Below, piece after piece: positions 10,891 through 38,272 of a stretch of 38,272 nucleotides of DNA. Under the pieces are notes generated by a model that made no database searches, was not told where the DNA came from, and saw nothing but the letters and a program-made list of their open reading frames with translations. Both the position numbers and the translations under genes were made by a program. Position 1 is the first letter of the stretch; every line of letters starts with the position of its first letter. Origin of the DNA: Thermoplasmatota archaeon (GTDB taxonomy: Archaea > Thermoplasmatota > E2 > UBA202 > DSCA01); NCBI GenBank assembly GCA_049975285.1, contig JBNGDQ010000001.1:1-38272 (forward strand), written 5' to 3'.

Positions 10891-12129
10891 TCATGTGTCC
10901 TGCGGAGGCAGCATGTATTCCTCGAAGATATCGTCGAACACCCGAGCCTGGTGCTGGATGACTGCCTCGGCTTCATCCATGTCCATGTCGGCTGTCTCAT
11001 GCGCGTAGCTGACGAATCGACCGAACCAGAGGGCCTTCGTGGCCTCTAGGATGGCTGTCTTTTCATCGCGGGACTCCGCCTGCCGGTAGGCTATGGCCAG
11101 GCTGTACACGCTTTCCGCCCACAGTTCCGCGTCGAACTGGTCCAGATCGTCCATGCAGCGGTCCAGCCGGTCGACGAGCCGGGATGGCAGCATCGAGCGG
11201 AGGCGGTTCCGGTGCAGGGGGAATTCCTGCCGGAAGGAACAGGCGAGGCGCTGAAGGTCGAGGTTGACCGGCACCGGGTTCTGGGTGAAAAATTCCTTGT
11301 GGCCATAGTGACCGCCGTCGTTACACCGATTACGCCAGACATCCCGATAGAAATCAGCCAGCTCGAACATCTGCCCGGTGACCTGCCGGAACATGGGGAC
11401 CAGCAGCTCCTCCGGCTCCAGGTACCGCGTGGTCGATTCATGAATCTTGAGGGAATAGATACCCTCCCGTATGCGCATGTGTTCCGCTGCTGCGGTGGTC
11501 ACGATGAACACGTCGATGCCGAAGTCATACGGAAACAGGGGATGCCGTCGCAGTGTCTCGTATAGCTCCTGGGACATGCCGAACTCGCCGGCCAGCGGCT
11601 GCCGGATGTCCTGCCCGTAGAGCGCCCGGGTGAATGGATACGCCAGGATGTTGGTGATGACGCCGTCGTACTTATCCCGGATGTAGTAGGGAACGATGAG
11701 CTCGGCGCGGCCGCACAGCACCGGGTAGGAGAACTCCTGCAGCCAGGTGGGCTTGATGCTGAGCAGGTCGCCGTCCACCATGACCAGCGATTTGGCGTCC
11801 AGCTCATGCGCGATCTCCATGATGGTTCGGACCCCGGCTCCTTTGCCGCCAGGGGTCATATCCCGGGTGATGATCTTGGCGATGCCGTTGTGGGGCTTGA
11901 ACAGCTCCGCTAGGTCCAGCGTGCGGTCCTCGGAGAAGCCGTCCGTCACCGCTATAGCCGTCCGGTACTCGGGGAAATACGTGTGCAGGCCCTCGCTCAC
12001 CGTGTTGAGGACATGGAGAATGGTGGCTTCCACGTTTTTGCACAGCACGCCTACCAGGATATCCACGTCTCCAGTCTCCTCTAGCTGTCTGCGTACGTTT
12101 TCATCCAGCGAAACATCGTTTTCATGCAT
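10891..12129 (-). CDS. GT-A fold glycosyltransferase, second synthase-like gene of the compatible-solute operon (possibly glucosylglycerate-synthase-like; tentative)
   Basis: ATG 12129 (MHENDV...) lies 4 nt after the upstream TGA at 12134-12136, so the ORF-track extension to 12204 is unlikely. A nucleotide-sugar-binding N-domain reads DILVGVLCKNVEATI...AVTDGFSEDRT...GGKGAG...VMVDGDL, with a DxD-like element. Confidence 0.65.
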   Translation of the reverse strand: MHENDVSLDENVRRQLEETGDVDILVGVLCKNVEATILHVLNTVSEGLHTYFPEYRTAIAVTDGFSEDRTLDLAELFKPHNGIAKIITRDMTPGGKGAGVRTIMEIAHELDAKSLVMVDGDLLSIKPTWLQEFSYPVLCGRAELIVPYYIRDKYDGVITNILAYPFTRALYGQDIRQPLAGEFGMSQELYETLRRHPLFPYDFGIDVFIVTTAAAEHMRIREGIYSLKIHESTTRYLEPEELLVPMFRQVTGQMFELADFYRDVWRNRCNDGGHYGHKEFFTQNPVPVNLDLQRLACSFRQEFPLHRNRLRSMLPSRLVDRLDRCMDDLDQFDAELWAESVYSLAIAYRQAESRDEKTAILEATKALWFGRFVSYAHETADMDMDEAEAVIQHQARVFDDIFEEYMLPPQDT

Positions 12130-32498: not shown

Positions 32499-33002
32499 TT
32501 ATTTTTCTTCGTCGACCCGCTGTATGTTCATGCCCTTGTACTCGAGCCGGGCGGATCGCTTGACGATGGATTTCATCTGGATGGAACTGAAATCGAATTT
32601 ACGCTCTGCTTCACGGCCGAGCTCGCCGTCGCCGACGAAGTCGTAGATCTGCTGCTCGATGTCATGGAACGTCTCCTCGTCCATCAGGGCAATGGAGAAC
32701 ACGTCCTGGAGCATGTCAACCGACGATATGACCTTTATATGGAAGGATGAATAAAAAGCATGATATTGTTTCTTCGCGGTGCCGCCGTCCATCTCCCAGC
32801 GGGTCTCCACGAGCTTGACTTTTTCAAAAAACGTGAGGGCCTCCTTTCCCGCCTGGCCGTATTCCTCCTCGACTTCTTCCATGATGGTCCATTCCTCGCA
32901 GACCTTCTCAAACACATGCCGCTTGACGTCGGAGTCAAAGGCTCGCATCAGCCACACCAGATCCGTAATATCGTTGATCAGCTTCGCCTGGCTCATAGAC
33001 AT
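32499..33002 (-). CDS. Hypothetical acidic cytoplasmic protein (167 aa), possibly wHTH-like
   Basis: The ORF is clean with ATG starts (MSMSQ...). It lies immediately upstream of the kinase on the same strand. No confident family was recognised. Confidence 0.5.
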   Translation of the reverse strand: MSMSQAKLINDITDLVWLMRAFDSDVKRHVFEKVCEEWTIMEEVEEEYGQAGKEALTFFEKVKLVETRWEMDGGTAKKQYHAFYSSFHIKVISSVDMLQDVFSIALMDEETFHDIEQQIYDFVGDGELGREAERKFDFSSIQMKSIVKRSARLEYKGMNIQRVDEEK

Positions 33003-33068
33003 TTATGGCACATCCGTTTAAATTTCTATGGGTCAAAAATCATTAATAGCAGGAACAAATACGGGTGT

Positions 33069-33977
33069 ATGGGAGAAGGCTACGGCTACGGCAAAGTCAT
33101 TTTATTCAATGAACACTTCGTCGTCTACGACGTCCCGGCTATCGCGTCAGCCATCGACAAGACAACCACGGCACGCGTCCGGCCCAGTCCATCCGGGCTG
33201 GTGCTCCACGACGACCGCATGGCCACCCCGCGATACAAGGAAAACAAGAAAGACCAGCAGCAGGACTCACTCCGCTACATCTTCCAGGCCATGGACGTCG
33301 ACCCCAACCTGGAGATATGGCTCCAGGGCGACCTCAAGGCAGCCAGCGGCATCGGAGCCAGCGCGGCCAGCTGCGCCGCGATAGCGAGAGCCATCAACGA
33401 TGAATACGACATGGGCCTCAGCATGGAGGACATCAATCGCGTTGCCTATGAGGGAGAACGCGGCTACCATGGCACCCCGTCGGGCCTCGACAACACCGTC
33501 GCCACGTTCGGCGGCCTGGTCTGGTTCCAGTCCGGCGACATGGAACGGCTCACCATCGATGAACCCGTCGACATCGTGATGGGCAACACGGGCATCGTCG
33601 CGGATACCAAGCAGGCCGTGGCCGGCGTCCGCAAACGCAGAGAACAGCAGCCCGATAAATATGAAAAGGTTTTCAAGCAGGCAGAGGAACTGGTACATGA
33701 GGCGCGCGAGGCACTGCTCGCCAGCGACTGGCCAAAAGTCGGCCGGTATATGAACCAAAACCATGAGCTGCTCCAGCAGATCGAGGTGTCATCGCCGGAG
33801 CTGAACGAGCTCGTCGACCTGGCCCGGGAGCAGGGCGCCCTCGGCGCCAAGATGACCGGCGGAGGCCTCGGCGGGTTCATGGTGGCATTGACGCCCGGCG
33901 GGGAGCTACAGGAAACCGTCGCAGCGGCGATAGAAGACGCGGGTTACGAGGCACTCCGCACCCGGGTGGGCATCTAA
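33069..33977 (+). CDS. mvk: Mevalonate kinase
   Basis: The true start is ATG 33069 (MGEGYGYGKVILFNEHFVVYDVPAIA); the ORF-track start at 32760 overlaps the opposite-strand gene. The GHMP motif is KAASGIGASAASCAA and the C-terminal motif is GAKMTGGGLGGF. Confidence 0.92.
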   Translation: MGEGYGYGKVILFNEHFVVYDVPAIASAIDKTTTARVRPSPSGLVLHDDRMATPRYKENKKDQQQDSLRYIFQAMDVDPNLEIWLQGDLKAASGIGASAASCAAIARAINDEYDMGLSMEDINRVAYEGERGYHGTPSGLDNTVATFGGLVWFQSGDMERLTIDEPVDIVMGNTGIVADTKQAVAGVRKRREQQPDKYEKVFKQAEELVHEAREALLASDWPKVGRYMNQNHELLQQIEVSSPELNELVDLAREQGALGAKMTGGGLGGFMVALTPGGELQETVAAAIEDAGYEALRTRVGI

Positions 33978-34004
33978 AGAGAAATGCTTAAATGAGCCCG
34001 GCGC

Positions 34005-34010
34005 TTTTTT
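34005..34010 (+). terminator. Oligo-T tract (T6) after mvk
   Basis: GCGCTTTTTT lies 28 nt after the TAA at 33975-33977. Confidence 0.3.
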
Positions 34011-34020
34011 CATCCCGTCT

Positions 34021-34105
34021 GCGAGGGTAGCCAAGCCAGGCCAACGGCGACAGACTCAAGATCTGTTCCAGCAGTGGTTCGTCGGTTCGAATCCGGCCCC
34101 TCGCA
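34021..34105 (+). tRNA. tRNA-Leu (anticodon CAA)
   Basis: Hand-folded structure. Acceptor stem GCGAGGG/CCCTCGC, and anticodon stem ACAGA/TCTGT with loop CT-CAA-GA. A long variable arm (TCCAGCAGTGGTTC) is typical of tRNA-Leu. The T arm is GTCGG-TTCGAAT-CCGGC and the discriminator is A. No CCA is encoded, and a T7 run follows. Confidence 0.9.
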
Positions 34106-34112
34106 TTTTTTT
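34106..34112 (+). terminator. Oligo-T (T7) immediately after tRNA-Leu
   Basis: TTTTTTT directly follows the discriminator base. Confidence 0.5.
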
Positions 34113-34154
34113 AATATTAAACATTTATATACTACTTCGATGTTATAAGGGGTA

Positions 34155-34688
34155 ATGACTTACGAGAAAAAACCTCGGATTACCAAGCGGACTATTCCGG
34201 TGTATCTCCCGACCATTGAAATGAAAGAGCGGTGGAAAACCAAAGCGGAAGAAGTCGGGTTGTCGGCATCAAAGTTTGTTATCGAATACGTTGAAAACTC
34301 ACTGATGCAGGAAGAGAATAAGGATATATATAGCTCGCGCGCCGAACTAATGGAACAAATAAAAGACCTGAAAGATGAAAATACGGAGTTACGGAAGCGT
34401 AACAAAATGCTTGATACTCTGATTGGTAGAATGGACGAAGATATGAAACGATACCGTACTAAACCATTCATGCAAGATGAGTTTTATGGCATCAGGGAAT
34501 ATGAGGAGCAGCTCATAAATATATTCAAGGAACGGGGGAAGGTTAGAAAGGAAGAAATATATGAGCTGCTAGATATCGACCCCATGAAAAACAGTGACAT
34601 CGTGAAGGGCATAAACCGACAGTTAGAGATGCTGGAACGGTATGGCATGATAGAGGACAAGGGAAAGGTGTGGGTATGGAACGGCTAA
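34155..34688 (+). CDS. Ribbon-helix-helix (CopG/Arc-like) + coiled-coil + C-terminal winged-helix protein; candidate element regulator or excision factor
   Basis: AAGGGG precedes ATG 34155. The N-terminal RHH pattern is KRTIPVYLPTIEMKERWKTKAEEVGLSASKFVIEYVENSL. A heptad-rich middle region reads ELMEQIKDLKDENTELRKRNKMLDTL. The C-terminus is EEIYELLDIDPMKNSDIVKGINRQLEMLERYGMIEDKGKVWVW. Its 3' end overlaps the integrase start. Confidence 0.7.
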   Translation: MTYEKKPRITKRTIPVYLPTIEMKERWKTKAEEVGLSASKFVIEYVENSLMQEENKDIYSSRAELMEQIKDLKDENTELRKRNKMLDTLIGRMDEDMKRYRTKPFMQDEFYGIREYEEQLINIFKERGKVRKEEIYELLDIDPMKNSDIVKGINRQLEMLERYGMIEDKGKVWVWNG

Positions 34689-35617
34689 CCGATACTGAAC
34701 TACTGAGAGAGTTTGTAGATGATTGCAAGGTTAGGGGCCTGACCCATCATACCATCCGATGCTACCGAGGTCAAATACGGATATTTCGGGATTTTTTGAA
34801 TGAGCATAACCGGCATTTCTACGACGTTGACAAGAATATTTTGAAAGAGTTCATCCGATATCTCCGTAACCAGCGTAAGGTCAGCCAGAAGCGTATAGAA
34901 AATTATTTTTCCAGTTTGTCGAGCTTCTATGACTTCCTAACCTACGAAGACATCGTGGATAAAAATATAGTGTTGCAGGTTAGAAAACGGTATCTGCGTC
35001 GCTACAAAAAAGATAACAATGGTGGTAGCAGTCGAAAGCTGATAAGCATCGATGAAATGGCGAACTTCATAAACATGATATCTGATACTAGGGACAAAGC
35101 TGTTGCATTGCTTCTGGCAAAAACGGGCATCAGGAGAGGGGAGCTCATAAGCATAGATGTCGATGATATTGACTGGCAGGACATGAGCATCCGGCTGAAA
35201 CCTAAGGCAAAACGGTCAAACCTAACAGTGTTTTTCGACGACGAAACCACCGCTATCCTATGGCGGTGGGTATCCAAACGTGAAACCGTAGCAAACGAGG
35301 ACTGCCGTGCATTGTTTGTATCATATCAGTATGGCAAGCGGCTGAAACGAAGCGGCGTATATCATCCCTTTATATCTTGGGCTGAAAGGGCGGGACTCCA
35401 TAATTCCGAATCAGCCAGACTAGAGGACCACTTTACCCCCCATTGTTGCCGTCATTGGTTTACCACACATCTACGGCGGGCGGGGATGCCCAGGGAATAC
35501 ATCAAGGAACTACGCGGAGATGCCAGGACCGAAGCAATGGATATCTACCATCACATCGACCGTGAAGAACTGAAAAAATCCTATTTGGTACATATTCCAC
35601 AGTTGGGGGTTGAATAA
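34676..35617 (+). CDS. Tyrosine recombinase / phage-type integrase (XerC/D-like)
   Basis: The N-terminal SAM-like core-binding domain includes GLTHHTIRCYRGQIRIFRDFL. Catalytic signatures are AKTGIRRGEL (Arg), HCCRHWFTTHL (HxxR) and MDIYHH (Tyr). The ORF-track start at 34670 is GTG; the ATG is at 34676. Confidence 0.92.
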   Translation: MERLTDTELLREFVDDCKVRGLTHHTIRCYRGQIRIFRDFLNEHNRHFYDVDKNILKEFIRYLRNQRKVSQKRIENYFSSLSSFYDFLTYEDIVDKNIVLQVRKRYLRRYKKDNNGGSSRKLISIDEMANFINMISDTRDKAVALLLAKTGIRRGELISIDVDDIDWQDMSIRLKPKAKRSNLTVFFDDETTAILWRWVSKRETVANEDCRALFVSYQYGKRLKRSGVYHPFISWAERAGLHNSESARLEDHFTPHCCRHWFTTHLRRAGMPREYIKELRGDARTEAMDIYHHIDREELKKSYLVHIPQLGVE

Positions 35618-35862
35618 TGAATCAATATAGAGGTTTAAAAAGATGAGTGATTCAAGTAGTATAGATGCCAATATGATGTAAAGCGGAAAAAAGATATGAA
35701 CAGCCGAAAAAAAATGCGAAGAGGCAATCCTGCAGCAAACCTTGAGAAGTTATAGAACTGCTGACAGGCGCTTAGAACTCTGTGTAAAGGGACAGAATGA
35801 ACGCTTGGACTATCTTGCCTGAATGGCAATACTATGGCATAATACAATATCGAAAGGATTAG

Positions 35863-35967
35863 GAAAAACAAGAGGGCATCGACATCTATCATCACATTGG
35901 TCACGAAAAACTCAGTAACAAATACGTGGCCTGCATACCCCGCTTGGGCTCGAATAACATACGCTGA
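35863..35967 (+). pseudogene. Relic of the 3' end of a second, diverged tyrosine-integrase gene
   Basis: The frame opens after TAG 35860-35862 and reads EKQEGIDIYHHIGHEKLSNKYVACIPRLGSNNIR*. This aligns with the C-terminus of the intact integrase (EAMDIYHHIDREELKKSYLVHIPQLGVE*), including the catalytic Tyr context. No upstream integrase sequence remains. Confidence 0.65.
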
Positions 35968-36130
35968 TATATCTCTGCTGACACCAATGTTGGCAACCAG
36001 TCAGTGCAAAGAAGAAGGGAACACAATGTGGAGAACCAGGGGGGGGGGTAAATCCTTAATATTGGATCGCATTATAGAGCCATAGGAGCGGATACATGAT
36101 TTTGATGGGATATCGGAACCGGAGGACATC

Positions 36131-36346
36131 ATGCACTCTATACATCTACCCATCTGGCATGAAGCCGTTGGCCACTTGGTGGAGGTCTCCCTGCAACACG
36201 GATACATCCATGCGACGCTCGCCAAAGTTGGCACCATCATTATGCCCTTCAACGAGGACCATTATCAGCGACTCCAGACGTTGACAGGGAAACGGATCGC
36301 TATCCTACGAATAGATACCGGCTATGTAGTAGCAGAAGCAGTCTGA
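36131..36346 (+). CDS. Hypothetical small protein (71 aa) on the island
   Basis: GGAGG (36121-36125) lies 5 nt upstream of ATG 36131. No family was recognised. Confidence 0.35.
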   Translation: MHSIHLPIWHEAVGHLVEVSLQHGYIHATLAKVGTIIMPFNEDHYQRLQTLTGKRIAILRIDTGYVVAEAV

Positions 36347-36738
36347 CACCCCCTAAGGGTCACAAAACCTCGCCCGAAACACCACGACGGGGGCAGCACT
36401 ACGATAGAGCAAGGATGGCTGCATATTGATTTAGACGTAAGACTATCACGGGGTGGAGAGGGGGCATGTGGAGGAAAACTCCAATAACTCCTGCCTATAG
36501 ATGGCAGAAGCACCAACATTTCTGCCCCCCTGACCAATTATAATATTGCAAAGGATATTTAATATTTTTTTTATCAGTGATGTATTTTTGTATGCTGTAT
36601 TTGGTAATCCTGTAAAAAGCCCTTGAAACCAACTACGAATTGTGTTTGATAGCATTTTTAGATATAATGGTTTTAAATGGGTATAACATTGATATAATGC
36701 TGGTGGAGAGCTACCCCAAAAATAAATGGAGAGATAAA

Positions 36739-38262
36739 ATGAAAGGAAAAATAATAGCGGCTGGTATTGTCGGCTTGATGATGCTCGCCGGGATAACAAT
36801 AACGGCTGATGCGCATACCGAGGACCATCCGTATACAATTGACCTCATAGCGGGTCAAGATATAGATGTGGGAGATGTTACAGTCTGGAACGACGGCGAT
36901 ACTATCTATGTGACCTTTACGACCGAAGACGGGTGGTATATGACTGAGACACATCTACACCTTGCAATGTCTTCAGATGCGTTTCCAGTGAATAAGAAGG
37001 GTAACCCCCAGGTTGGACATTTCTATCGTGGTGAAGATGACCTGTACACCCAAACATGGTCGGATACACTCCCATATGGCGGTTCTCTTGGGAATACTGT
37101 ATACATTGCTGCTCATGCGGCTGTAGAAAAAATATGTGAAGAAGAGGTAGTCGTCAATGGAGGCTTCGAAACACCTGACATAGAGGGTTCCTGGGCTATC
37201 GTCTCGGACGACGACATTGCACCCTGGTATACCACTCCAAATGTGGACCCTGAGGGTGATCCTGAGGGATTAGAGATACAACAGATTGAAGAGGATGCAG
37301 AAGGCGATGATGGAGACCAATATGCAGAACTTGATGCCTACTATCCATTGACACTTAGCCAGCCGATACCTGCATGTGAATCCGGAAGATATATCCTCTC
37401 CTACTCATATGCACCCAGACCAGATGTTGAAAACAATAATATGTCTGTAACGTTTGGCGATTACTATGCGGAGCATGATGCAACAGGTGTCGATGTCGAT
37501 TTTGCGTGGACTTCAGTGTATGAAGAAGTAACGGGACCTGACGATGGCGATGTCACTCTCAGCTTTTCGGAGATAGGACCAAATGACCAAGTGGGCATGT
37601 TTCTTGATGCGGTAAGCGTCCATTGTATCCTTGAAGAGAGTGCCTGGGCAGGTGGAGATGGAGAAGATGGAATACGGTTTGTCGAAAAGGGAAACTGGGC
37701 AACATACTTCATGTATACAATACAGTTCGACTTCAATACGCTTGAACTGGTATACTCGACAGACATGACCACCTGGGAACCTATCCCCGGCTGCTACAGA
37801 GAAGGCTATACCCTGGAGCTTGATGGAGTAGATGATACAAAGTATTATATCAATACTTCAACCGTGGAAACCAATGTTCCTCTTGAAGTTGACAAATATG
37901 GTTTCTATTTGAACATCTCCGAGTGGGATGAGAACATGGAAGAGAGTTTCTACAACTACTGGGAAGGTCGTGGCGTCGACGCCACCTCCAGCGGTGGTTG
38001 GGAAGAGCAGATGTGGAAAATCATCAACAACGATGACACTATGCCGAATGAGCCCATATTCTATCTAAAAGTCGATGGCACAGACTACAGAGTACTCGAT
38101 GGACTCCAACAGCTACTGACAAGTGGTACCTCTACTGACCTCCTATATGTTGATGGCGACTACCCTCTGGGCACCTATTACTTTACCGGAACCATAACAG
38201 GCACCAATAGTTGGACAACTGAGATAACCATAGAGATAGAGCTAACTGATACGCTGCCGTAG
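36739..38262 (+). CDS. Secreted acidic protein with a DUF642/galactose-binding-like jelly-roll segment; island cargo
   Basis: The preferred start is ATG 36739 (GGAGAG upstream), giving the signal peptide MKGKIIAAGIVGLMMLAGITITADA. The segment VVNGGFETPDIEGSWAIV...APWYT...LEIQ...GDQYAELDA resembles the DUF642/CBM-like pattern. The gene has low GC like the rest of the island. Confidence 0.7.
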   Translation: MKGKIIAAGIVGLMMLAGITITADAHTEDHPYTIDLIAGQDIDVGDVTVWNDGDTIYVTFTTEDGWYMTETHLHLAMSSDAFPVNKKGNPQVGHFYRGEDDLYTQTWSDTLPYGGSLGNTVYIAAHAAVEKICEEEVVVNGGFETPDIEGSWAIVSDDDIAPWYTTPNVDPEGDPEGLEIQQIEEDAEGDDGDQYAELDAYYPLTLSQPIPACESGRYILSYSYAPRPDVENNNMSVTFGDYYAEHDATGVDVDFAWTSVYEEVTGPDDGDVTLSFSEIGPNDQVGMFLDAVSVHCILEESAWAGGDGEDGIRFVEKGNWATYFMYTIQFDFNTLELVYSTDMTTWEPIPGCYREGYTLELDGVDDTKYYINTSTVETNVPLEVDKYGFYLNISEWDENMEESFYNYWEGRGVDATSSGGWEEQMWKIINNDDTMPNEPIFYLKVDGTDYRVLDGLQQLLTSGTSTDLLYVDGDYPLGTYYFTGTITGTNSWTTEITIEIELTDTLP

Positions 38263-38272
38263 GACCTGAAAA

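Follow-up and report, generated by a model that had tools for sequence, protein, structure and literature searches.

The window, a stretch of 38,272 nt, comprises the whole of contig C1 of the MAG G000, an uncultured Thermoplasmatota archaeon with a 1.82-Mb genome. Close to its right end lies an intact tRNA-Leu(CAA) gene (34020–34106, + strand; ARAGORN; Rfam RF00005, 50 bits), which is adjoined by a mevalonate kinase gene in the congeners G001, G002, and G004. The tRNA gene is an integration target, with its 3' end regenerated by the element that follows it. The G+C content is 0.60–0.625 across positions 33200–33999 vs. 0.41–0.45 across 34200–35199 (400-nt windows), and the per-kb values fall from 0.597 to 0.431 at 34001 and stay at 0.43–0.47 until the window end, which confirms the drop at the tRNA 3' end described in the initial annotation, here measured as about 0.60 to 0.43. 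Beyond the tRNA, the + strand encodes a 177-aa accessory protein, a tyrosine integrase, the relic of a second integrase, a 71-aa protein, and a 507-aa secreted protein.

The integrase gene (34676–35617, + strand) is intact and encodes 313 aa, or 315 aa when read from the GTG at 34670. Its identification as a tyrosine integrase is supported by a Pfam Phage_integrase match (PF00589, 9.5e-26) and SAM-like N-terminal domains. The enzyme is Xer-like, with two domains (SAM-like N-terminal and catalytic) and no arm-binding domain, and it matches the XerA structure in the PDB (5hxy, 2.5e-15). An assignment as XerA chromosome resolvase was rejected, as the score against the NCBIfam equivalog NF040815 (175.1 bits) falls below the 220-bit cut-off; the host's own distant Xer-like gene, on contig C37, is 24% identical to the element integrase. 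Residues R155/R156, K181, H258xxR261, and Y293 are kept in 30–31 of 31 family integrases, and the canonical His/Trp-III position aligns instead with an invariant R282-G-D284-x-R286 (RGDxR) motif. A "suicidal" integrase of the SSV type was also rejected, with an ORF that is intact in the integrated state and an attP located upstream of the accessory gene. When 50,697 records of phages and archaeal viruses were searched by tblastn, 63 matches were obtained, all below 60% identity; the 25 of these 63 that were listed are bacterial Xer-like proteins at no more than 26%, apart from one partial match at 32.5%, and none is named as SNJ2, Natrinema, or a halovirus (four were listed without an organism name).

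The accessory gene (34155–34688, + strand) encodes a protein whose C-terminal winged helix is preceded by a long coiled coil and a candidate N-terminal ribbon-helix-helix (RHH)-like region. The AlphaFold model (pLDDT 82) contains two N-terminal helices, a 45-residue helix, and the winged helix, the latter with weak Foldseek matches. Of the RHH/coiled-coil/wHTH architecture proposed initially, the long helix and the winged helix thus appear in the model, while the RHH call is that of a candidate fold, based on a beta-alpha-alpha sequence pattern and a single weak RelB-like match, with no confirming structural match found by Foldseek. The 3' end of the gene overlaps the integrase ORF by 13 nt, as reported previously, if the ATG at 34676 is used, and by 19 nt from the GTG at 34670; the gene caller likewise gives a 13-nt overlap in the close relative on metagenome contig L066. 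No Pfam family was found for the accessory protein and it has no match in the phage and archaeal-virus collection. Its own family comprises 875 representative clusters (50% identity) at E ≤ 1e-3, spread over several archaeal phyla. The homologues are all named "hypothetical".

The final 16 nt of the tRNA, ATCCGGCCCCTCGCAT (34091–34106, + strand), constitute the attL core, as placed by blastn-short and a four-way layout of attB, attL, attR, and attP. Searching the whole genome with blastn-short, we found an identical copy of ATCCGGCCCCTCGCAT beyond the window at positions 590–605 of contig C160 (16 nt exact, 22/23 when extended, E 0.001). This attR core has the correct orientation, with G+C changing from 33% on its left to the host level of 55%–60% on its right, and the core occurs in the MAG as attL and attR only. 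Both the direct repeat of the tRNA 3' part and a right end outside the window, anticipated in the initial annotation, are therefore located on C160. Among the G000 contigs, no contig end was found that overlaps C1 at its end or C160 at its start. On the host side, a 9-nt overlap joins C160 to the reverse complement of C264 and restores a single intact 407-aa lipoprotein gene, and C264 at its far end shares 76% identity with the sequence immediately 3' of tRNA-Leu in the congeneric genome G002. In G002, a host gene in the conserved flank begins right after tRNA-Leu, without a drop in G+C. As C160–C264 runs on into DNA that in G002 comes immediately after the tRNA, this congener represents the empty site, which provides the comparison with a relative lacking the insertion. 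G001 carries a related element at the same tRNA.

The corresponding attP is found in the metagenome contigs L066 and L067, where left arm, core, and right arm are contiguous without a tRNA (left arm vs. C160, 24/30; right arm vs. C1, 17/20); this evidence comes from a close relative with an 89% identical integrase (L066) and not from the copy in G000 itself. Related elements are likewise bounded by repeats, namely those of L042 (22 nt, 9.6 kb), L058 (18 nt, 10.1 kb), and G002 (26 nt, 20.9 kb). The insertion at tRNA-Leu is genuine, and its attribution to a tyrosine integrase is borne out by attR, the empty site, and the attP of the relative.

Just inside the left junction lies a perfect 12-nt palindrome, TTTAATATTAAA (34110–34121), which is the right-arm (P') site and has two occurrences genome-wide, the only other copy being located at C160:567–578, 11 nt left of the attR core. 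The attP core of L066 is bracketed by two copies of the palindrome. A family motif, TTTAC-NN-GTAAA, is present at the equivalent position in 29/29 loci, 18 of which match it at 9/10 or better (background 7.7e-5 per position), and a second, left-arm copy occurs at −21 to −25 from the core in all five testable elements, although that of G002 is weak (9/12, shuffle p 0.1). The half-sites vary symmetrically in L062 and also in G000/L066, where A replaces C5 and T replaces G8. Direct reading of the sequence further reveals a TATA-box-like TTTATATA (34124–34131, + strand) approximately 27 nt ahead of the accessory gene's ATG, and in most family members such a box follows the 12-nt motif by 0–4 nt. 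The box presumably serves as promoter for the two-gene operon, the mRNA of which is probably leaderless. The right half-site and the TATA box could instead form an ordinary BRE/TATA promoter, and the 12-nt motif could be bound by the integrase itself or by a host factor.

Across 34 archaeal loci, the integrase and its accessory partner are the only conserved components. In 31/34 loci the integrase is immediately preceded by an accessory homologue, overlap of the two genes is seen in 28/29, and a tRNA gene (Leu, Ser, Arg, Glu, or Gly) is found directly upstream in approximately 20. The presence of the module is patchy, with 9 of 41 relatives carrying it and zero to three copies in each. The cassette and its paired 12-base sites recur beside many tRNA genes across archaeal phyla; locus L048 comes from Nitrososphaerales, and the linkage also holds in the Nitrososphaera loci L068 and L069, which were found from the accessory side (homologue P0036). 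The accompanying cargo differs widely, from that of an MCM-helicase plasmid-like element to that of islands with transporter, toxin/kinase, defence, or surface-protein genes. An earlier suggestion that the region represents an undescribed type of mobile element was not upheld, as the loci share only integrase and partner, the cargo varies, and the copy in the window is mosaic. The element fits the existing class of cryptic integrated elements (CIE), defined for Thaumarchaeota (Krupovic et al. 2019, PMC6563490), and the island itself is ordinary. Similar to the present elements, CIE span a few kb to tens of kb, are bounded by short direct repeats at tRNA genes, and have the integrase as their sole consistently conserved gene, with variable and often orphan cargo and an MCM or other replication gene in some. 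In contrast, the CIE class is set by exclusion and has no signature partner, whereas the present loci conserve a further gene and a DNA motif to the same degree as the integrase. What seems to be undescribed is the integration module, in which a Xer-like integrase is combined with a fused RHH-coiled-coil-wHTH partner and a pair of 12-bp arm sites.

The closest functional analogy may be offered by the haloarchaeal pleolipovirus SNJ2, in which a MarR-like wHTH protein and a coiled-coil protein that promote integration are encoded by genes overlapping, and transcribed together with, that of the integrase, with binding of these helpers to the P/P' arms proposed by the authors (Wang et al. 2018, PMC5861418). 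Both systems integrate at tRNA genes via a short core (14 bp in SNJ2, 16 nt here) and have upstream genes that overlap the integrase, and the combination of a wHTH and a coiled coil overlapping the integrase is found here in fused form, with an overlap of 13–19 nt (gene layout and model). The SNJ2 helpers, however, are two separate proteins of 141 and 111 aa that only a minority of SNJ2-type elements encode, whereas a single fused protein occurs here in 31/34 loci. XerA, XerC, and XerD share the two-domain SAM-like and catalytic architecture and provide the best sequence and structure matches; the present integrases differ in scoring below the XerA cut-off, lying beside tRNA genes in patchy islands, and having a dedicated partner. 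As in Islander-type islands (PMC4383910) and lambda-type Int/Xis systems, a tRNA 3' end is targeted and regenerated, the integrase gene lies beside the tRNA, a displaced 3' fragment marks the far end, and the core is flanked by (here putative) accessory DNA-binding sites. In lambda-type systems, arm binding is built into the integrase as an N-terminal domain, and Xis is a small, separate protein. The element integrase is without such a domain, and the accessory partner may provide bivalent DNA binding in trans.

The integration very probably took the following course. The integrase recombined the 16-nt attP core with the identical 3' 16 nt of the tRNA (attB), with the identity probably continuing from ATCCGGCCCCTCGCAT into TATTTTA. 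The products were an attL consisting of the intact tRNA followed by the P' arm (34091–34121) and an attR consisting of the P arm followed by the core (C160, 567–605). The accessory and integrase genes would form one operon, expressed from the TATA box within the P' arm; the accessory protein may dimerise via its coiled coil and bind both 12-bp palindromes flanking the core, which lie approximately 42 bp apart in attP, thereby serving the Xer-like integrase, which lacks an arm-binding domain, as a cofactor of architecture or specificity. Auto-repression of the operon by the accessory protein would also be probable, because one palindrome abuts the TATA box. We tentatively propose, with somewhat less than even confidence, that the accessory protein founds a large family of obligate partners of Xer-like integrases, the dimer of which bridges the two palindromes, supplies arm binding in trans, confers tRNA specificity, and auto-regulates the operon. 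If true, the partner would turn a simple Xer-type recombinase into a tRNA-specific integrase, and archaeal integrases, said in reviews to work unaided, would have in it their first widespread helper or directionality factor.

Alternatively, the accessory protein may be solely a transcriptional regulator (an auto-repressor or immunity factor) acting at the TATA-adjacent operator, with the left-arm motif regulating a divergent gene or being incidental. Domains of the RHH and wHTH types are typical of repressors, the right-arm motif lies 0–4 nt upstream of a TATA-like box, at the BRE position, in nearly all loci, and the characterised archaeal tyrosine integrases act without helpers according to a review (PMC8371274). 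We nevertheless regard a purely regulatory role as rather doubtful, since the second motif is held at a fixed −21 to −25 across the core in 5/5 elements, outside obvious promoters, the linkage to the integrase is strict (overlap in 28/29 loci) while other genes vary, and the SNJ2 wHTH and coiled-coil proteins promote integration (PMC5861418).

Downstream of the integration module, the element changes in character. The C-terminus of a second, different integrase is retained as a relic at 35866–35949 (+ strand), and translation of this segment (...IDIYHHIGHEKLSNKYVACIPRLG) supports the relic integrase noted initially. It is identical at 14/28 positions to the C-terminus of the neighbouring integrase of the element (tblastn); the best match is the integrase of the tRNA-Ser element of G002 (16/24), and over 82 nt the DNA shares 72% identity with the 3' end of that gene. 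The relic marks a recombination joint. It is followed by the gene for the 71-aa protein (36131–36346, + strand), homologues of which follow the integrase in two related elements (56%–58% identity to the gene after the G002 integrase, 38% to a 75-aa gene in L066) and for which no family match was found in Pfam, NCBIfam, or PHROGs. These similarities show the element to be a mosaic, with both ends and the integration module of the L066 type and the relic and 71-aa gene of the type found in the 20.9-kb tRNA-Ser element of G002.

The visible cargo is predicted to be a secreted lectin-like protein of 507 aa (36739–38262, + strand) with a CBM-like beta-sandwich core. It has an N-terminal signal-like helix, and residues 30–330 (modelled at pLDDT ~85–93) match CBM61, CBM16, and CBM4 beta-sandwiches in Foldseek (E ~2e-5), in support of the secreted jelly-roll protein described earlier; the C-terminal third has no usable model. 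A weak "choice-of-anchor C" match (2e-4), paralogues on the G000 contigs C278 and C46, and 88 homologues, all named "hypothetical", were also found. The beta-sandwich thus matches carbohydrate-binding modules and not capsids.

Searches of Pfam, NCBIfam, and PHROGs revealed no capsid, portal, terminase, or other virion genes in 34107–38272 or C160:1–589, and no viral or replication family was found in the visible 4.7 kb. The element could still be a complete and active plasmid-like or viral genome with its replication or virion genes in the C1–C160 assembly gap. The att and arm sites are intact at either end, as are the integrase and accessory genes, the nearest relative L066 continues after the module with an MCM helicase and has many small ORFs, and one cargo ORF in the family matches a large terminase. 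Against this, the element departs from L066 immediately after the integrase into the relic and G002-type DNA, the visible 4.7 kb lacks viral and replication families, and the complete sister element of G002 has no such genes among its large ORFs. Furthermore, the MCM of L066 matches in G000 only C13 (33%, a host contig with a G+C of 0.6) and C42 (26%), with nothing at element-level identity. A complete genome is thus an improbable explanation. Compared with G000 by tblastn, the G002 element gives matches only for the integrase module and large multi-copy gene families.

Taken as a whole, 34107–38272 is very probably the left part of a mosaic element that integrated site-specifically into the 3' end of tRNA-Leu(CAA) and whose helper mechanism we infer. 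That the low-G+C block is ancestral and vertically inherited, with the C160 repeat as a chance match or binning artefact, is highly improbable: low-G+C contigs are common (111/357 below 52%) and the tRNA body has two other exact 16-nt matches by chance, but this reading is contradicted by the empty site in G002, the L066 attP uniting precisely the two element-side arms, the confinement of the palindrome to the two junctions, the link from C160 to the conserved flank via C264, and the patchy distribution among relatives, and the case in which an att repeat is missing and every relative has the same genes is excluded. An ABC transporter operon and two additional ORFs occupy the approximately 4.7 kb that separate attR from the conserved flank; the congeners lack this DNA, and the history of the site is therefore more complex than a single insertion.

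The tRNA-Leu(CAA) gene at 34020–34106, called by both ARAGORN and Rfam, marks an abrupt compositional boundary: as the initial annotation had noted, the G+C content drops here, from 0.60–0.625 in the 800 nt before the tRNA to 0.41–0.45 after it, and remains at 0.43–0.47 up to the contig end. The attR that this annotation proposed to look for, a direct repeat of the 3' part of the tRNA, is present on contig C160 of the same genome (G000, a MAG of 357 contigs, 1.82 Mb, 56% G+C, 92% complete), where the 16 nt that end the tRNA, ATCCGGCCCCTCGCAT, are repeated in direct orientation at C160:590–605. This was the single informative match when the tRNA and its flank were compared to the genome, and the extended repeat agrees with the tRNA side at 22 of 23 positions. 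To the left of the repeat, C160 consists of 290 nt with 33% G+C; to the right lies host-like DNA (55–60% G+C), the first gene of which encodes an ABC-transporter ATPase. An Rfam scan of 32520–36200 and of C160 returned the tRNA as the sole match.

A direct synteny comparison of the C160 flank with the congeneric genomes revealed nothing in common at the DNA level, and C160 was linked to the conserved flank through a further contig, C264. There is a 9-nt overlap between the end of C160 and the reverse complement of C264, joining the two restores one intact gene for a 407-aa lipoprotein, and the far end of C264 shares 76% identity with the DNA directly after tRNA-Leu in the congener G002. The conserved flank in G002 starts a few bases past the tRNA and its G+C content is not lowered, so this relative represents the empty site. 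Since the congener G001 contains a related accessory and integrase element at the same tRNA-Leu, G002 is empty, and the congener G004 carries a different, AT-rich insert of 0.58 kb (L021, G004:C135, 56–638), this site is a variable hot spot within the genus. On its opposite strand, the G004 insert has a gene for a small membrane-like protein, and it lacks an integrase. Two G001 contigs (L022, C53, 6100–6276; L019, C8, 2025–2140) have the tRNA-Leu and 21 nt of the P' arm (CATTTTAATATTAAACTTTAT) in common before they diverge: on one the accessory gene follows, on the other an unrelated AT-rich gene with the conserved flank behind it. This could reflect population heterogeneity or the remnant of an earlier element. 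In G000, approximately 4.7 kb of extra DNA separates attR from the conserved flank. Located there is an ABC transporter operon (ATPase, FecCD-type permease, and the 407-aa substrate-binding lipoprotein) with two further ORFs (C160:610–3369 joined to positions 1–1323 of the reverse complement of C264), which is missing from the four congeners at the DNA level and may have been acquired earlier at this hot spot.

The first ORF past the tRNA (34155–34688) encodes the 177-aa accessory protein, and two metagenome contigs, L066 and L067, were reached through a homologue with 83% identity; in both, the accessory gene is preceded by TAATTTAATATTAAACTTACGTTAAT | ATCCGGCCCCTCGCAT | TATTTTAATATTAAACTTTATATATG. 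Of 30 left-arm positions, 24 agree with the element side of C160, and of 20 right-arm positions, 17 agree with the element side of C1, the contig that the window covers in full; no tRNA is found in either metagenome contig. L066 and L067 have the P-O-P' arrangement expected for an unintegrated element, and the two G000 junctions are the recombination products of such an attP with the tRNA. Upstream of the module, L066 carries an AbrB-like gene, a DNA methyltransferase/DUF499/DUF1156/SNF2 block, and an IS91 transposase; downstream of it come a 319-aa protein, small ORFs, and an MCM helicase. Virion genes were not found in this contig.

The ATG of the tyrosine integrase gene at 34676 overlaps the accessory gene by 13 nt, as originally reported. 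The best family match of the integrase is the archaeal XerA model and its best solved structure is XerA, and the score falls below the model cut-off, ruling out XerA itself; the enzyme is Xer-like and has no extra N-terminal arm-binding domain. Within the integrase family, the catalytic R, K, HxxR, and Y residues are kept in 30–31 of 31 members, and an invariant RGDxR motif occupies the usual His/Trp-III position. The accessory protein could not be assigned to any family in Pfam, NCBIfam, or PHROG, where, coiled-coil noise apart, it yielded two weak matches, to an excisionase PHROG (E 0.003) and a RelB-like family (E 0.05). No match was obtained in phage and plasmid collections and no relative in IMG/VR, and homologues in every source are named ‘hypothetical’ or bear a spurious coiled-coil name. 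A profile search nevertheless recovered 875 representative clusters (530 with E ≤ 1e-10), with a uniform length of 165–230 aa. The structural model (pLDDT 82) predicts a conserved V-Y-L-P strand segment, two short helices, a 45-residue helix, and a winged helix, and Foldseek searches with it gave weak matches to winged-helix domains only.

In a survey restricted to one genome per species, we identified 34 loci with integrases showing 40–63% identity, distributed over Thermoplasmatota, Methanomassiliicoccales, Methanothrix/Methanocrinis, Bathyarchaeia, Hadarchaeota, and Nitrososphaerales. In 31 of the 34 loci, the integrase gene comes directly after a gene for a homologue of the 177-aa protein, with the accessory stop and integrase start overlapping in 28 of 29, and a Nitrososphaera genome approached from the accessory protein showed the same pairing. 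Nine of 41 relatives carry the accessory gene, with 0–3 copies each. A tRNA gene (Leu, Ser, Arg, Glu, or Gly) directly precedes the accessory gene in some 20 loci, and in several more the 3' end of a tRNA lies at the contig edge. One contig labelled as a Halanaerobiaceae bacterium (L049, PWDW01000232.1) is near-identical to the Hadarchaeota locus L042 in the accessory protein and upstream region, including the tRNA-Ser(CGA), and is probably a mis-binned archaeal contig.

The junctions share a further feature. The perfect palindrome TTTAATATTAAA occurs twice in the 1.82-Mb G000 genome, both times at an att junction: one copy begins 4 nt past the attL core (3 nt between), and the other ends 11 nt short of the attR core. 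L066 likewise has two copies, 42 bp apart, on either side of the attP core. The corresponding family motif, TTTAC-NN-GTAAA (consensus TTTACNNGTAAA), is located 0–8 nt past the tRNA end and 38–58 nt before the accessory ATG, followed by a TATA-like box. It is found at this position in 29 of 29 loci, with at least nine of the ten specified bases in 18 of them (background 7.7e-5 per position). A second copy lies 21–25 nt before the core in every element for which the other arm is known, agreeing with the element's own right-arm motif at 12 of 12 positions in G000, L066, and, inverted, L042, at 10 of 12 in L058, and more weakly, at 9 of 12, in the G002 element. The two half-sites are altered symmetrically in the variant of G000 and L066 and also in L062 (CTTAC..GTAAG), a pattern that a dimeric binding protein would be expected to select for.

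The tRNA, attL, attR, and attP thus have an identical core, the integrase is intact, the gene pair is operon-like and conserved, and the sites are paired. We infer that the integrase would exchange strands within the 16–23 nt of identity, and that the TATA box of the P' arm (TTTATATA, 34124–34131), located approximately 27 nt ahead of the ATG, would drive transcription of the operon. The accessory protein, as a putative coiled-coil dimer with two kinds of DNA-binding domain, would bind the paired sites, thereby aiding assembly of the recombination complex and repressing its own promoter. We give about an even chance to the accessory protein being an integration cofactor. The nearest tested precedent is virus SNJ2, in which wHTH and coiled-coil proteins, encoded by genes overlapping the integrase gene, increase the efficiency of integration, with arm binding proposed (PMC5861418). 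According to a review, other characterised archaeal integrases need no helpers (PMC8371274). A purely regulatory role of the protein is somewhat less likely. The module offers a testable candidate for an integration cofactor of general importance in archaea, whose integrases, according to current reviews, have none.

The gene content places the element among the ‘cryptic integrated elements’ described for Thaumarchaeota (PMC6563490). An SSV-type element is ruled out because the integrase is not split, and the visible part of the element represents neither a provirus nor a replicon. When 1,342 ORFs were clustered all against all, no conserved cargo or hallmark gene emerged besides the two module genes and their shadow ORFs. 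The cargo includes a PIN toxin and a hybrid sensor kinase (L042), a P-type ATPase and FeoB (L058), a DUF927 helicase (L034/L036), SNF2/PLD proteins (L043), and methyltransferases. A single ORF of 122 cargo ORFs from L031–L063 matched PHROG 7579 (large terminase, E 2.7e-42), so that at least one element with this module may be a tailed provirus; the source locus was not found among 30 candidate ORFs. The island in the window is an ordinary tRNA-targeted integration, showing how Thermoplasmatota genomes gain variable low-GC blocks encoding secreted proteins. Of wider interest is the module, in which one integrase–partner pair and one type of 12-bp site are combined with at least five tRNA species and unrelated cargo. 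We found no description of the fused partner or of the motif in the open-access papers searched, which is not proof of novelty. The order tRNA end, TTTAC-NN-GTAAA, TATA box, and two genes provides a signature to find and delimit archaeal islands in MAGs, and the attP/integrase cassettes, which are compact, self-contained, and naturally specific for different tRNA genes, could become genetic tools for archaea that now have none.

The element in the window is a mosaic. The integrase and accessory protein are 89% and 83% identical to those of L066. Approximately 250 nt past the integrase stop, the relic integrase recognised in the initial annotation is confirmed at 35866–35949 as 28 codons left over from the C-terminus of another integrase, most similar to that of the tRNA-Ser(TGA) element of G002 (16 of 24 aa; 72% DNA identity over 82 nt), and the 71-aa gene at 36131–36346 is 56–58% identical to the gene after that integrase. 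As the module is closest to L066 and the remnant and 71-aa gene to the G002 element, the window element combines the arms and integration module of the L066 type with island DNA of the G002 type, and the relic marks where they join. Three elements encode this 71–75-aa protein after the integrase (36131–36346; L039:11150–11377; L066:12501–12728); it has no family match and a conserved W-EEA-G...ILR-D/E-TGY-V motif. The ‘secreted jelly-roll’ protein (507 aa), confirmed at 36739–38262, has a well-modelled core resembling carbohydrate-binding modules. As for the missing middle of the element, neither the end of C1 nor the start of C160 has a 7–127-nt k-mer overlap with any other contig, neither the integrase nor the 507-aa protein had a match in exact-protein look-ups, and no close copy of the L066 cargo was found in G000. 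The cargo of the G002 element was rejected as a guide: with dozens of G000 paralogues per family, it singled out no specific contig.

This G002 element is fully delimited, spanning 20.9 kb between copies of a 26-nt repeat (18 nt from the 3' end of the tRNA and 8 nt more), with G+C returning to 0.54–0.62 right after attR. Many of its large ORFs have hydrophobic, signal-like N-termini and are read as putative secreted or membrane proteins, and several are members of families that have dozens of G000 paralogues on low-GC contigs. One 664-aa ORF, read as secreted, has around 40 tblastn matches across G000 contigs, 111 of 357 of which have less than 52% G+C; the genus appears to possess very large paralogous families of exported-looking proteins in low-GC DNA (in G000, for example, C29, C17, C28, C149, C31, C48, C20, and C91). 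A segment of approximately 235 nt in the G002 element (L039, about 11485–11720) is 86–88% identical to several G000 contigs outside the window (C55:1016–1250, C183:1–238, and the ends of C51 and C157), two of which terminate in it, and may be a small repeat, MITE, or RNA gene that also breaks the assembly. Finally, with further accessory genes at G002:C2:158156–158671 and G002:C7:36674–37189 besides the tRNA-Ser element, the G002 genome probably contains three elements of this module type.
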